A DNA stretch of 64,000 nucleotides, taken from contig CAWHXD010000019.1 in the NCBI GenBank assembly GCA_963833225.1, forward strand, positions 576,001 through 640,000. Direction: 5' to 3'. This DNA comes from an uncultured Chloroflexia bacterium (lineage in GTDB: Bacteria > Chloroflexota > Limnocylindria > Limnocylindrales > CSP1-4). A program made the position numbers and the translations under genes. The notes beneath the pieces were generated by a model. It did no database searches. It saw nothing but the letters and a program-made list of their open reading frames with translations, and was not told the DNA's origin. This document shows positions 60,804-64,000 of the stretch, piece by piece; the first letter of the stretch is position 1, and the number at the start of each line of letters is the position of its first letter.

Positions 60804-60879
60804 GCGGGAGTAGCTCAGCTGGCAGAGCGGCAGCCTTCCAAGCTGCATGTCGCGGGTTCGATCCCCGTCTCCCGCTCCA
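60804..60879 (+). tRNA. tRNA-Gly (anticodon TCC)
   Basis: GCGGGAG/CTCCCGC acceptor stem, GCAGC-CTTCCAA-GCTGC anticodon arm, GGTTCGATCC T-loop, encoded CCA, 76 nt. Confidence 0.98.
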
Positions 60880-60969: not shown

Positions 60970-61536
60970 CTACGGGCCGGCGACCGACAGCTGCACGGCT
61001 GGATGCCCTGCCGGCGTCACGCACATGACCTGGTAGCCGCCGACGGCGTAGTCGACGAGGTCCTTGCCCAGCTTCACGCTCTCGATCTTGTAGAGGAGCG
61101 TGCTGGCTGCCTGGACCCAGCCAAGAGTCGGCTGGTACACCCAGTCGGGAGCGTCGGTTGTCACGTCGCCATCGTCGTTCGCGAGCACTTCGACGAGATC
61201 TTCGTAGGTCGTTCCCGGCTTGACGCCATAGATCCAGAGATACGAACCCGAGACCGCCTTCTCAGGCGCGAACTCCATCTGCAGCATGGTGCCGTCGAGG
61301 ATCACTGACGGCCCGAGGTAGGTGCATGTCTCGCCGTCGAAGGTGACCTTGACCTTGAGCACCGACGTCGTCGCGGTTGGCGCCGGAGCCTCCGGTGGTT
61401 GGGTGCTGGGCGACGGCGCCGGGGCCTCCGGTGGTTGGGCGTTGGGCCCGGCGGTCGCCGACGGGTTCGCGCCGGACGTGCAGGCGGCCAGCACCACCGA
61501 GAGAAGCGCTGTGAGGAGATACCTGGTGCGCATCAT
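60970..61536 (-). CDS. Hypothetical lipoprotein
   Basis: Lipobox VLAAC, QPPEAPAP x2 linker, VTFDGETCTY.GP ... GGYQVMC; GAGG RBS. Confidence 0.8.
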   Translation of the reverse strand: MMRTRYLLTALLSVVLAACTSGANPSATAGPNAQPPEAPAPSPSTQPPEAPAPTATTSVLKVKVTFDGETCTYLGPSVILDGTMLQMEFAPEKAVSGSYLWIYGVKPGTTYEDLVEVLANDDGDVTTDAPDWVYQPTLGWVQAASTLLYKIESVKLGKDLVDYAVGGYQVMCVTPAGHPAVQLSVAGP

Positions 61537-61590
61537 GGGGCCTCTTCCCGACTCGCCATCCGGGCCCCTGGTGGCCGGATCGGCGTCGCC

Positions 61591-61644
61591 ACGATGCGAT
61601 CTGCCGATGAGCCGCCGGTGAGCAGCGTTTGAGGGGGCGATGAG
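61591..61644 (-). promoter_or_regulatory. Four direct repeats at 11-bp period plus putative -10 (SARP-box-like promoter)
   Basis: TGAG at 61608, 61619, 61630, 61641 (CTCA on minus strand); CATCGT at 61596-61591. Confidence 0.65.
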
Positions 61645-61670
61645 CGGCCGGAACGGCCTGCTCGGCGGGT

Positions 61671-64000
61671 TCATGGCGGCGCTGCGGTGCGGACCTGTTC
61701 GATCACGTCGACCTCGCGAAGGATGGAAGCGATCGCAGAGCCCGCCGGCGCCTCCGCGACTCGAAGGGCCGACTCCGGAAAGGCGATCGTGCCGAGGCTC
61801 CGTGGCATCCGGTCTGAGGCGTCCGGACGGAACTCCCCTGCGCTGATCGCGGACGCCACGAGGCTCGCGGGGATCCGCTCGCCGGCTGGCCGGTCCACCA
61901 GCGTGCCCAGGGAGACGGTCGGGACTAGTCCGCTCCCCAAATCGTGAGCGACGAGTAGGGACGCGAACTCGGCGCCGAGGAGGTGACGCACAAGCGCCCG
62001 GACCTCAGGCCGATCCCGGAGGACCACCAGCATGTACACGCGACCACGGAGCTGCTGCGAGCCTTCCCCACCGATGGGGAACTTGATCGGCGTCAGGTCT
62101 TCCCGGACGGCACCTGCCCACTGGGCCCGTTGATCTCCGCTTGCATGGATGAGCCAGCAGGCAGGGAGCTCATCGGAGCCCATTTCGAGGGCGACCCATG
62201 CTGCAGGCGTCCGGACCGCCGCATCCGGGCCGCCCTGAATGGCGCCGTCGAGGTGGATCAGGGCGTGGTACTGCTCGTACGCTCCCACGACCAGCGGATG
62301 ATTGAAGCTGAACAGGCCCGACGCCCACCTGTCGTACCACTCCGTCGTCAGGCGATCGAGGACAAGATCCTCGATGAGGTCCGCGCCGTTGGCCCCGTCG
62401 TGCTCCCCCCCAACCAGGCCCAGGCACCACGGCGTACGCCCGTCGGCGATCATCCGCTCGACGAGCCGCTCCAGGTCGGGCCAGGTTGCCGGAGGTTCGT
62501 AGCCGGCCTTCGCGAACGCCTCGGCCGGGTACCACAGCAGGCTTGAGGCCGTGGCCGCGATCGGTGCGCCGACGAAGCTGGTCCCATCGCCAGTCGAGCC
62601 AGCGCCGCGCGATCCGACCCAGCTCAGGTCGGCCAACGGGCCCGCTGCGAGCGTCGCCACCTCGGCCGGCGACAGGATGTCGTCGAGGGCGATCAGCGAT
62701 CCGGCCCGGTCGAGATCGGTGATGTCACCGGGTCGAGCAAGGATGGCGACGTCTGCCTGCTCGACGGCCGGTCCTGGGTCAGTGGCGCCGACGTCCGACG
62801 TGATGGCGATGGTTGGCCCCTCTGCCGCGTAGTTGACGAGCGCGTTGCTCAGGTCGGCGGGCAGCTGCGAGAAGACCCGCACGTTCGCTCCCGGGCTGCC
62901 AGCGTCCGCCAGCTCATCCATTGCCACCGGGCCGTCGGCCGTCATGACCCTCAGGTCGCTGTCGCTTCAAGTCCCCGCCCGCGACCGGACAGGCCGGCTG
63001 GTGGAGGTAGACCCGGCATTCGGCGGTCGTCAGGACCCGCCCGGCACCCGTCGTCGCGACCTCGATGAGGTCCGCACCGCGCAGCAGGTACACCCCTCGA
63101 GGACCGTTCCGGGCGATGCGGATGGCGCTCGGTGCGGCCTCGATCGGATAGGGGATCCGGGTCTCTTGGATCGCCCAGTGGAGTGCGTCGAGCGCCTCCT
63201 CCGTGATCCAGCCTCGATCGGCCGTGGCCCGTGCCGCCTCGACGGCGAGGAGCAGTGACAGGGTGGGATCCACGTCCAGCCGCCCATTCGCGGCGACCGC
63301 CAGCTCGCGTGCCGTGGCGATCGCCCGATCCTCGCGGGCGCCCTCCGCCTGGCGCCAGACGACGGCGAGCAGCCCCGAAGCGCCGACGACCGCCACGAGC
63401 AGCACCGCCACGAGCGCCCGGAGCCACGTCGCGGCCCGTCGCTCCAGCCGGCGCTCCTGGTCTCGGCGATCTCGCTCGGCCAATTCGATGCGTCGACGCT
63501 CGGCCAGGCTCGCGTCGAGCAGCTCGCGCTCCGGAGCGTCGAGGCGGATGTCGGTTGCGGCGCTCCAGGCCTCGAACAGGTCGAGGCGGCTGCCGGACAG
63601 GAGGAAGCCCGGATCCCGGTGCGCGGCCTCCCATTCGGTGGCCGTGGCCTTCAGCCGCGTCTCCATCCAGAGGGCCTCCTCCGCCTCCTGGATCCACCCC
63701 GCGAGGCGCGGCCAGTGCGTGAGCAACGCCTCGTGGGCCAGCTCGACCGTTGCTCGGCCGGTGCGGGGGTCGCGGTCGAAGCCAAGCAGTCGCCATCGAC
63801 CAAACGCCTCGAGCAGGTCGTCGATGCGCTCTGGCGCCGGCTCGATCGACCGCAGGTCGTCCATGACGACCCGCCGGGCAGCGACGCTCCGCCCTTCGCC
63901 GACGGCGGCCAGGCGCAGGAACAGCTGGCGAGCGACATCGCGCGACGGCTGGTCGAGCGACGCGAAGACCGTCTCCGCGCGCCGACCGACAGCACCGGCG
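61671..64000 (-). CDS. nSTAND1-type NTPase/regulator C-terminal part with TM helix, fused (via +1 frameshift near 62968) to sugar-binding SBP domain; 5' end outside window
   Basis: LFLRL..., RWRLLGFDRDP.T...TVELAHEALL.HWPRL.GWI, FLLSGSRL, TM, ARELA.AA...DP.LSLLLAVEA, LT.AECRVYLH..ACP; then SLLWYP..F...GYEPPATW..L...GRTPWCLG...EDLVL, FRPDASDRMP (AglE/GgtB-like). Confidence 0.8.

Follow-up and report, generated by a model that had tools for sequence, protein, structure and literature searches.

Do the two overlapping open reading frames at the end of this stretch, one for a regulator and the other for a solute-binding domain, encode two separate proteins, are they the remains of a recently inactivated gene, or do they derive from one receptor gene whose frame is broken only in the assembly? 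The window, by which we mean the whole stretch of 64,000 nucleotides that was analysed, contains the following parts of this gene, listed in the direction of reading:

62914..64000, (-) strand: regulator ORF; the C-terminal 361 codons, within the window, of an 897-codon SARP-nSTAND1-TM-cap ORF
63610..64000, (-) strand: end of the nSTAND1 NTPase module (residues 537-666), including the VELAHEALL..WPRL..WI motifs
63355..63423, (-) strand: transmembrane helix LRALVAVLLVAVVGASGLLAVVW (residues 729-751), preceded by an Arg-rich cytoplasmic flank
62974..63354, (-) strand: small, predicted extracytoplasmic cap domain (residues 752-878) with pre-WD40 and post-WD40 motifs and two short strands
62967, (-) strand: extra base, one A of the AA in GAC TTG A AGC; dropping the neighbouring base restores the frame equally well
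61671..62966, (-) strand: frame of the SBP_bac_1 ectodomain, open from 62966, with an ORF of 424 codons at 61671-62945

Read beyond the window end at 64000, the regulator ORF begins with a TTG at window-equivalent position 65607, and its 897 codons match, in order, the Pfam families Trans_reg_C (residues 22-76; 37.8 bits, cut-off 26.2), BTAD (106-250; 156.6 bits, cut-off 22.1) and nSTAND1 (PF20703; 268-666; E 1.3e-104, 351.3 bits, cut-off 27.1). The first two matches, at window-equivalent 64858-65544 and hence outside the window, give the winged helix followed by BTAD that makes the protein a SARP; the SARP/BTAD head that the earlier note had predicted upstream of the window is therefore there. 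The nSTAND1 match extends over profile positions 1-378 of 379, which assigns the module to that family, and both a Walker A (GPSGSGKSS) and a Walker B motif (LLLVIDQLEE) occur in it; the motifs following the NTPase and the one membrane helix that had been noticed previously were also recovered. This helix (residues 729-751) is the sole 19-residue Kyte-Doolittle window scoring at least 1.6 in the 897-codon ORF, with six Lys or Arg among the 15 residues before it and three among the 15 after it. Because the DNA-binding and ATPase domains are cytoplasmic and precede this single helix, whose N-terminal flank is rich in Lys and Arg, the solute-binding (SBP) domain falls outside the cell in the predicted topology, as had been supposed.

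The 424-codon ORF matches SBP_bac_1 (PF01547; E 3.7e-9, 37.5 bits, cut-off 26), and has no signal peptide, lipobox or hydrophobic stretch, in agreement with its previous description as a binding domain of 424 aa without a signal peptide of its own. In the model of a homologue, P0011 (pLDDT 89.4, pTM 0.77), the membrane helix is part of one continuous helix spanning residues 97-181, and the C-terminal domain has a two-lobe fold resembling those of carbohydrate-binding proteins (TM-score 0.70-0.78 normalised to the target, at 12-17% identity), namely ppGBP (5xpj/5dvf), Oant_3817 (4r2b), NagB2 (7ehu), AcbH (3oo6), BxlE (3vxc) and RafE (2hq0). The Pfam match and this modelled fold place the domain in the carbohydrate cluster of SBP_bac_1. 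Ligands of the matched proteins are glucose, chitin-oligosaccharide, xylo-oligosaccharide and raffinose and, judging by likeness of fold, the ligand here may be a sugar too. Residues that are invariant across 49 homologues include two aromatic motifs in the core of the SBP domain, WY and PWC (W1027, Y1028 and W1062 in P0003 numbering).

That the two frames belong to one chain is apparent from their relatives. At least 58 of 120 homologues among the matches listed carry nSTAND1 and a solute-binding domain in a single chain, most of about 1300 aa, and three of 18 genomes of the same genus have an intact open frame (1331, 1342 and 1350 aa; two close copies and one more distant), the other 15 yielding no comparable intact copy. 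Full-length nSTAND1-TM-SBP homologues, for which the earlier note had asked that a search be made, thus exist in number and are intact in relatives, and its reading of the locus as a one-component receptor gains support in that the fused chain is real at the level of the family. The window gene itself does not form the single ORF of about 1300 aa of that family, its frame being broken at 62967 while those of its relatives are intact; it is a member of the fused SARP-nSTAND1-TM-SBP family by descent, not an intact gene. The same nSTAND1-TM-SBP body is also found behind other heads, namely TIR_2 (P0145), kinases and cyclases. A search of genome contigs with the SBP ORF alone confirmed no relative, and a second contig scan, with alignment A1 and SARP/nSTAND patterns, returned mostly other SARPs, the SBP part being present only in L002, L003 and L043 of 80 loci.

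A possible origin of this architecture is suggested by the segment between the membrane helix and the binding domain. A helix motif that precedes WD40 repeats in related proteins, ARELAVAANGRLDVDPTLSLLLAVEAA (residues 766-792; 63232-63312, (-) strand), and the post-WD40 motif LT..EC..YLH...CP, LTTAECRVYLHQPACP (residues 859-874; 62986-63033, (-) strand), indeed lie close together, as had been claimed, although the gap between them is 66 residues and not about 55. In P0075, a cyclase-nSTAND1-TM-WD40 protein, the same two segments flank a whole propeller according to BLASTP: query residues 267-854 correspond to P0075 216-804 at 48% identity, a region that runs from the P-loop, includes the membrane helix and reaches the first helix of the ectodomain, and query residues 822-873 correspond to P0075 1343-1397 (E 9e-7). 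The window protein thus has the C-terminal LT..EC..YLH..C motif in common with nSTAND1-TM-WD40 proteins, but P0075 has about 650 residues of WD40 repeats between the motifs, versus 66 residues here, and lacks the SBP domain that follows the second motif. Of 48 WD40-type hits, 35 have this motif, in the form LT..EC..YL...C, at 1-8 residues from the C-terminus; in the SBP-type hits with a pattern match (42 of 70), it lies a median of 437 residues before the end. For the first motif, the search pattern proved overly strict (it matched six and then eight of the 48 WD40-type hits) and was dropped as a count; the placement of that motif comes from the P0075 alignment. At the level of sequence, the bringing together of the motif pair fits a loss of the propeller and the addition of an SBP domain, and we propose, as the best explanation, that the cap domain is what remains of the segments flanking a former WD40 propeller.

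The frame break consists of a single base. The regulator and SBP ORFs are in different frames and share 32 nt, the SBP frame being open directly after the TGA at 62969-62967, and the last 17 codons of the regulator ORF (62965-62917) and its stop are an out-of-frame read-through past the extra base. If one base is dropped at 62967, the junction (DL.D.DLRVMTA) has the length found in relatives, and a related public contig (29,105 bases, run X2, about 90% alike) is without exactly one base at this position; the earlier claim that removing one base at about 62968 joins the frames is upheld by the sequence, by the relatives' junction and by this contig. It is very improbable that each ORF is meant to stand alone or that programmed +1 frameshifting links them. 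A GAGGG does stand 2 nt before the ATG at 62945, but this ATG is an internal Met codon of the fused family, whose members read through it and its surroundings as normal coding sequence (DLRVM); moreover, P0001-P0005, G009, G010 and the run X2 contig are all in frame at the junction, and an SBP ORF on its own would be without an export signal. We rejected a programmed frameshift on account of these in-frame relatives and of the absence of any slippery or stop-codon context at the junction.

There are then two ways to account for the extra base: an indel introduced in assembly, or a real and very recent frameshift that has inactivated the gene in the source lineage and would leave a SARP-STAND-TM protein without its sensor, together with an SBP fragment that stays untargeted in the cytoplasm, if that fragment is produced at all. 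The base is present in the assembly, and its site, an AA, is no long homopolymer and so not the most typical site of a consensus error; furthermore, the gene is accessory, and its loss is plausible because an intact copy occurs in only three of the 18 same-genus genomes. The close ENA proteins P0001 (95%) and P0002 (89%) are also frame-broken, at other places, but breaks at different sites in different assemblies would equally be expected from errors. Against inactivation, there is no further lesion in the 3.9 kb of the window gene. Of the columns with at least 90% conservation among 49 fused homologues, this gene keeps 251 of 252 (the nSTAND1 module) and 43 of 44, or 294 of 296. In addition, five of 97 testable same-strand overlapping ORF pairs in the same assembly look like split genes by a paralogue test, which covers genes with paralogues only (97 of 353 pairs) and replaced a screen of gene-start context that had flagged 230 and then 353 pairs and was too unspecific. 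Pfam detects a single domain that is cut in two or truncated in four candidate split genes (ABC_tran 1-91 + 101-137; GFO_IDH_MocA_C3 2-44 + 49-123; P-type ATPase Hydrolase from position 72 only; GGDEF 1-130 of 161), a pattern that fits consensus indels, although split genes elsewhere in the genome could also be real pseudogenes. Because the 294 of 296 conserved positions are kept and there are at least five other candidate split genes, we consider an assembly indel the likely source of the extra base, and a real frameshift an unlikely, though by no means negligible, alternative. One other candidate split gene is situated just 6 kb from the regulator gene.

No public run was found that covers the junction with DNA of the window itself, the largest share of sampled words in any run being 0.15; two 151-base records in run X3 are identical to the window and cover 62324-62640 only, and no RNA run is listed as containing this DNA. 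As assembled, the window copy is split and would not make a receptor, and automatic annotation of such a gene would yield two unrelated proteins.

Downstream of the regulator gene is a second conserved gene, with a candidate promoter:

61602..61645, (-) strand: four 11-nt direct repeats, GCTCATCGCCC CCTCAAACGCT GCTCACCGGCG GCTCATCGGCA, the proposed SARP box
61591..61596, (-) strand: putative -10 element CATCGT, 8 nt past the conserved 8-mer of the last repeat
60970..61536, (-) strand: conserved downstream lipoprotein gene (188 aa), with MMRTRYLLTALLSVVLAAC lipobox, Pro-rich linker and beta-sandwich domain

This lipoprotein is the only conserved neighbour of the regulator: a match to its profile lies directly downstream in six of seven distinct loci fetched by the regulator, and the SBP end of a regulator lies directly upstream in all five lipoprotein-fetched metagenome loci with enough upstream DNA. 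At L043, an SBP-bearing regulator occurs without the lipoprotein gene. No Pfam or NCBIfam family was found for the lipoprotein or for two upstream ORFs. We do not regard the lipoprotein as a cupredoxin or blue copper protein, a class of beta-sandwich proteins with conserved His, Cys, His and Met copper ligands, since its fold is only loosely alike (auracyanin 2aan, TM-score 0.52 normalised to the target; small laccases, 0.24) and the position of the His ligand is H, F or Y among six close homologues, in which the Cys is conserved. Atlas leads for the lipoprotein score 0.90-0.93.

The spacer that precedes the lipoprotein gene is 134 nt long and contains the repeat array, and in six close loci the four repeats are at the same distance from the ATG and the putative -10 reads CAT[C/G]GT (6 of 6). 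The four-unit pattern occurs once in the window, a count reached by none of 100 shuffles, and once in the 3.89-Mb genome, where about 0.002 would be expected, in a test that is post hoc because the pattern was written after the sequences were seen. A distant clade (L099, L100, L003) has a different motif, CAAACCG, which is found twice at 11 nt in L099 only. In the available portion of PMC10936776, the rule for SARPs is that the direct repeats are 11 or 22 bp apart, that their first 8 bp are contacted and that the 3' repeat is 8 bp from the -10, and the arrangement of the repeats and the putative -10 at the proposed target promoter would match the rule as given there. The lipoprotein gene thus appears to be a target of the adjacent regulator, as we propose.

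The lipoprotein is also a predicted binder of the regulator ectodomain. In a complex model, the G010 ectodomain with its own lipoprotein scored 0.85, as against 0.00 for the best of three controls, this being a score for G010's pair, not the window's, and not a measure of binding. Of solved complexes, 116 of 157 attain this score mark, as do two of 215 mismatched pairs; these counts hold only roughly because our own alignments were used. At least 78% of contacts agree among complex runs, and the partner has a pLDDT of at least 81. The predicted interface (regulator 825-835, 900-936 and 949) lies outside the inter-lobe cleft, on the cap and along the outer rim of the N-lobe, with predicted pairing of strands 931-936 of the regulator and 148-153 of the lipoprotein (G010 numbering).

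On balance, then, the locus is probably a gene for a regulator that spans the membrane as one chain of about 1310 aa, in a copy that a single extra base interrupts; how the regulator would work we infer from domain order and models. Such a chain would consist of an OmpR-type winged helix and BTAD, an nSTAND1 P-loop switch, a transmembrane helix, the cap and, outside, an SBP of the sugar-ABC type. A ligand would close the binding domain, and the STAND module would receive the change by way of the cap and the continuous helix that crosses the membrane; the nucleotide state of this module would then free or assemble the SARP heads. These heads would bind the four 11-nt-phased repeats upstream of the lipoprotein -10 and activate the lipoprotein gene, whose product may in turn serve as a feedback partner or co-receptor by docking onto the ectodomain at its cap and N-lobe. 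In the assembly, this chain would be cut between the cap and the binding domain by the extra base at 62967.

It is conceivable, if rather unlikely, that the ectodomain is a docking platform for the lipoprotein that takes no free solute and reports the state of the lipoprotein or envelope instead of a sugar. The contrast between the complex model and its controls, the status of the lipoprotein as the only conserved neighbour, the lack of a conserved ABC permease or ATPase beside the gene and the mere 12-17% identity to sugar-binding proteins of known ligand all agree with such a role; however, the predicted interface lies off the inter-lobe cleft, the aromatic motifs of the SBP core are invariant, and the same SBP module is joined to other effectors. 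That last feature, in the form of TIR_2, kinase and cyclase heads, would also suit a conflict or immune STAND system whose ectodomain detects an invader- or kin-derived surface molecule and not a nutrient, and nSTAND1 is named in the context of counter-invader systems in the accessible part of PMC8195603. Yet the protein bears a transcription-activator head with a dedicated single putative promoter target and no death effector, and no defence genes are conserved around the regulator gene in relatives, which makes an immune function improbable.

The known role of STAND/NLR-type switches is that of sensors in the cytoplasm, and SARPs are known to activate antibiotic clusters as soluble proteins. 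If the regulator works in the ligand-driven manner preferred here, a STAND switch driven externally, via one helix, by a transporter-type domain would be a new form of kinase-free transmembrane signalling; the family would be a compact, portable ligand-to-promoter device of one protein and one 44-bp operator; and the predicted docking of a putatively regulated lipoprotein on its sensor provides a concrete model of feedback or co-reception. More tentatively, and with somewhat less than even confidence, we suggest that Chloroflexota and Actinomycetota may possess 'surface NLRs', i.e., membrane-threaded STAND switches that read an extracytoplasmic binding-protein domain. If so, receptor, single promoter target and docking lipoprotein would constitute a closed two-gene sensing circuit in the SARP branch, and TIR, kinase and cyclase outputs on the same body would make trans-membrane STAND signalling a general, so far undescribed bacterial mode. 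The fused gene family is so far unstudied and unnamed: the accessible parts of the nSTAND1, SARP and STAND literature contain no description of a SARP-nSTAND1-TM-SBP architecture that we could find, and supplementary architecture tables could list such proteins. New here are the conserved downstream lipoprotein gene, the genome-unique putative SARP-type repeats and the modelled docking of the lipoprotein on the ectodomain.

Several known systems resemble parts of this regulator. AfsR and other 'large' SARPs of Streptomyces join a SARP head to an NB-ARC/NOD ATPase and TPR, and have in common with the regulator an N-terminal Trans_reg_C and BTAD followed by a STAND-class P-loop module; unlike AfsR, the regulator has nSTAND1 and not NOD as its ATPase, no TPR sensor, and a transmembrane helix with a predicted extracytoplasmic sensor. 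Because it reaches only 185.9 bits against a cut-off of 1430 for the full-length NCBIfam AfsR equivalog (NF053617; residues 3-301 align), we rejected its identification as AfsR (SARP + NOD + TPR). The carbohydrate-binding proteins of ABC importers are alike in the modelled fold of the ectodomain and in the Pfam match to SBP_bac_1, but the SBP domain here is tethered to a regulator and does not serve a transporter: it has no export signal or lipobox of its own, and no cognate permease and ATPase, nor any other transporter gene, are conserved beside the regulator gene in relatives. ABC ATPase ORFs 6-9 kb away in the source genome are not syntenic in G009 or G010. ToxR/CadC-type one-component activators, like the regulator, have an N-terminal winged helix, a single membrane helix and a sensor outside; they are not known to have a BTAD, an NTPase switch or an SBP-fold sensor, and we claim homology for the winged helix only. 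ToxR works with an accessory partner, ToxS, and the regulator described here has a predicted partner in its lipoprotein.

The regulator occupies two overlapping reading frames on the minus strand of a 3.89-Mb assembly (20 contigs, 71% G+C, 86% completeness, 3% contamination), in which the window is C19:576001-640000, and this copy in two pieces is the only one in that genome. The first ORF, of 897 codons, extends another 1.6 kb past the window end to a TTG start, and its N-terminus, MEIRVLGPLE, is that of its homologues. The SARP/BTAD head that the earlier note had suggested outside the window was found in this upstream DNA, and the features of the locus are:

Residues 22-76 of the 897-codon ORF, minus strand: Trans_reg_C (Pfam)
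Residues 106-250 of the 897-codon ORF, minus strand: BTAD (Pfam)
Residues 268-666 of the 897-codon ORF, minus strand: nSTAND1 (Pfam, E 1.3e-104)
Residues 729-751 of the 897-codon ORF, minus strand: single hydrophobic helix, preceded by an Arg-rich stretch
61671-62945, minus strand: SBP_bac_1 ORF of 424 codons (Pfam, E 3.7e-9)
60970-61536, minus strand: lipoprotein gene of 188 aa, with a lipobox (LAAC), a Pro-rich linker and a folded domain

The NCBIfam model for AfsR aligns to the SARP head only (185.9 bits vs. a cut-off of 1430). Beyond the helix, the first ORF continues for about 125 residues and then 17 out-of-frame codons to a stop at 62914, overlapping by 32 nt the SBP_bac_1 ORF, which is in a different frame and in which no hydrophobic N-terminus was found. 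The SBP frame has a TGA at 62969-62967, and omitting one base there joins the frames of both ORFs.

In the family, the fusion of nSTAND1, membrane helix and binding protein proposed in the earlier note is real. With the C-terminal 238 residues of the first ORF as query, at least 58 of the 120 proteins listed carried nSTAND1 and an SBP family in one chain (a table count from precomputed domains); the full-length homologues sought were found, the majority of 1290-1330 aa with Trans_reg_C and BTAD. The closest complete homologue among the matches listed, P0003 (1313 aa), is 86% identical, and the five homologues P0001-P0005 all read in frame across the junction (...ACP....DL.D.DLRVMTA...), with a junction length equal to that of the window minus one base. 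Of 18 same-genus genomes, 3 contain an unbroken frame (1331, 1342 or 1350 aa); the remaining 15 yielded only partial SARP or SBP matches and no intact regulator frame. A contig of the public sequencing run X2 (29,105 bases, depth 128) covers 62000-64000 and lacks exactly one base, at 62967; it differs from the window at 96 of 1148 bases in the STAND part and at 127 of 782 in the SBP part, and the window's own DNA at the junction occurs in none of the public runs searched. The observation is confirmed, and its interpretation is supported at the level of the family. The regulator of P0001 and P0002, from other public assemblies, is likewise broken by frame changes, each elsewhere.

Whether the extra base reflects a real frameshift or an error of assembly can be approached both from the gene and from the rest of the genome. 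Of the columns conserved at 90% or more across 49 fused homologues, 251 of 252 and 43 of 44 are retained in the window copy, which hence shows no sign of decay. Genome-wide, with ORFs called by third-position G+C, 353 same-strand overlapping neighbours were flagged, of which 97 pairs had a paralogue for both members; in 5 of these 97 testable pairs both members match consecutive parts of one paralogue, and Pfam backs the split in 4 of the 5:

C19:644558-646421 (L001 14558-16421), about 6 kb beyond the window end: ABC ATPase, ABC_tran profile 1-91 / 101-137
Elsewhere in the genome: GFO_IDH_MocA_C3, profile 2-44 / 49-123
Elsewhere in the genome: P-type ATPase, its Hydrolase domain starting at profile position 72 in the second ORF
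Elsewhere in the genome: GGDEF, cut at position 130 of 161, with an HD-GYP ORF next
Elsewhere in the genome: fifth pair, ABC plus ABC-permease, less clear

The ABC_tran split is a one-base frame change in mid-domain, at ...GAGCTCGGCTGATGCC..., and the other four pairs are at L106-L109. Because one-base frame changes interrupt several conserved genes of this highly contiguous, metagenome-type assembly, the extra base at the junction is probably an indel in the assembly consensus; that these broken genes are instead real pseudogenes is the less likely reading. For the window copy, broken by one base, an assembly artefact is accordingly more likely than biology. Beyond the window end, a 691-codon ORF (L001 17461-19536, minus strand) joins a T2SSE secretion ATPase (119-398) to RidA/L-PSP (507-589), and could represent a genuine fusion or a pair of genes merged by another indel.

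The stretch from the membrane-proximal end of nSTAND1 to the binding domain was modelled with AlphaFold2 on a 718-aa homologue, P0011, comprising the nSTAND1 end, helix, cap (the small domain between helix and SBP) and SBP, from a 71-row alignment (pLDDT 89.4, pTM 0.77). A continuous helix (97-181) leads from a charged cytoplasmic segment through the membrane to the cap, which consists of two short strands and three helices. The C-terminal domain resembles carbohydrate-binding proteins of ABC importers (TM-score 0.70-0.78 per target, 12-17% identity), including ppGBP, glucose-bound Oant_3817, the chitin-oligosaccharide binder NagB2, AcbH, BxlE and RafE, and weak agreement comes from searching solved structures by sequence (best E 1e-5); these matches suggest carbohydrate as the ligand class. 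Four invariant cysteines (C866, C875, C1063 and C1152 in P0003) would fit extracellular disulfides.

The lipoprotein gene directly downstream is the regulator's sole conserved neighbour. Its profile matches directly 3' of the regulator in 6 of 7 distinct regulator-fetched loci (the window, G009, G010, G018, L002 and L003), with no match at L043. Conversely, the SBP end of a regulator lies directly upstream in the lipoprotein-fetched loci L095, L096/L097, L098, L099 and L100; it is absent upstream of the weak matches L102-L105, and L101 has too little upstream DNA to show it. At L043 (126-7919), a regulator fragment bearing the SBP is followed, in the lipoprotein's place, by a second large SARP-nSTAND1 ORF (1757 codons). 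In L002 (9951-10894) and L003 (10026-11030) the lipoprotein gene is broken by frame changes at differing sites. A tRNA-Gly(TCC) gene (window 60804-60879, plus strand) lies about 90 nt past the end of the lipoprotein gene. Since the surroundings differ in each relative examined, the pair may move as a two-gene cassette. The modelled lipoprotein (mean pLDDT 72.9, folded part mostly 80-94) is a beta-sandwich loosely like cupredoxins (TM-score per target 0.52 for auracyanin, 0.24 for small laccases); a language-model atlas returns cupredoxin-like lipoproteins at 0.90-0.93, as a lead only, and since the copper ligands are not conserved, the lipoprotein is not classed here as a copper protein.

A model of the G010 ectodomain (residues 750-1309) with that genome's own lipoprotein (residues 55-192) scored 0.85, vs. 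0.00 for the best of three controls; among solved complexes 116 of 157 reach this mark, among mismatched pairs 2 of 215, a calibration that applies only roughly because the model was built on our own alignments. At least 78% of contacts agree among runs, and partner pLDDT is at least 81. On the regulator side, the predicted interface comprises the cap (825-835) and the N-lobe of the SBP along its outer edge (900-936, 949); on the lipoprotein side, it comprises strands 139-154 and 159-164. It leaves the inter-lobe cleft free, and the modelling supports a putative binding of the lipoprotein to the regulator ectodomain. The window's frame break falls between the cap and N-lobe halves of this interface.

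The spacer between the two genes (133-134 nt, conserved in six close loci) contains four 11-nt units, [G/C]CT[C/G]A..., at constant distance to the ATG, and a proposed -10, CAT[C/G]GT, 8 nt downstream of the last unit's conserved 8-mer. In a post hoc test, this four-unit pattern occurred once in the window and in none of 100 shuffles, and once in the genome vs. about 0.002 expected. In the more distant clade the motif is a different one, CAAACCG, which recurs at 11-nt spacing in L099 only. An inverted repeat, GATCCGG...CCGGATGG (window 61556-61581, minus strand), lies between the proposed -10 and the lipoprotein ribosome-binding site; kept in the six close loci, some with G-U for A-U, it could form a hairpin in the 5'-UTR or serve as a second operator. 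The layout of the spacer agrees with the promoter rule in the AfsR paper (PMC10936776), by which SARP promoters have repeats 11 or 22 bp apart, with 8 bp contacted at the start of each, and a weak -10 that lies 8 bp from the 3' repeat.

Weaker matches in the homologue search are nSTAND1 proteins with WD40 repeats. By BLASTP, residues 267-854 of the window ORF align at 48% identity to 216-804 of one of these, P0075 (complete, 1401 aa, cyclase-nSTAND1-TM-WD40), across the membrane helix and the ARELA...DP.LS.LLA.EA helix, and a second segment pairs 822-873 with P0075 1343-1397, i.e., the last blade strand plus LTDDECRQYLHVPTC at the extreme C-terminus. In 35 of 48 WD40-type matches this C-terminal motif sits 1-8 residues short of the protein end; in the 42 of 70 SBP-type matches where it was recognised, it precedes the end by a median of 437 residues. 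The flanks of a propeller of about 650 residues are thus brought to 66 residues apart here, with the binding-protein domain next, and the earlier picture of a swapped WD40 sensor is right. The WD40 form would, we infer, have come first and the SBP form later.

Scored against 1.84 billion representative proteins, the SBP ORF matched 1249 at E <=0.001 and 48 at E <=1e-30, the best mostly as C-terminal domains of long proteins; nSTAND1 and SBP_bac_1 occur together in 15 of 24 matches scanned with Pfam. The heads on such proteins are SARP, SARP plus protein kinase (about 1580 aa), kinase alone or TIR_2, and cyclase heads occur among matches listed from the first-ORF query. Because the heads vary, the nSTAND1-TM-SBP body is, judged by domain architecture, a module serving several outputs. 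By source names, members come from Chloroflexota and Actinomycetota. Individual examples with TIR_2, SARP plus kinase or class 3 cyclase heads are P0145, P0137, P0146, P0198, P0035, P0045 and P0063, and in P0207 an Hsp70/MreB-like ATPase is joined to an SBP domain. In the literature searched, we found no SARP or STAND protein described that spans the membrane and carries a binding-protein ectodomain. The regulator is a variation on known kinds: large SARPs, STAND switches and membrane-bound one-component activators.
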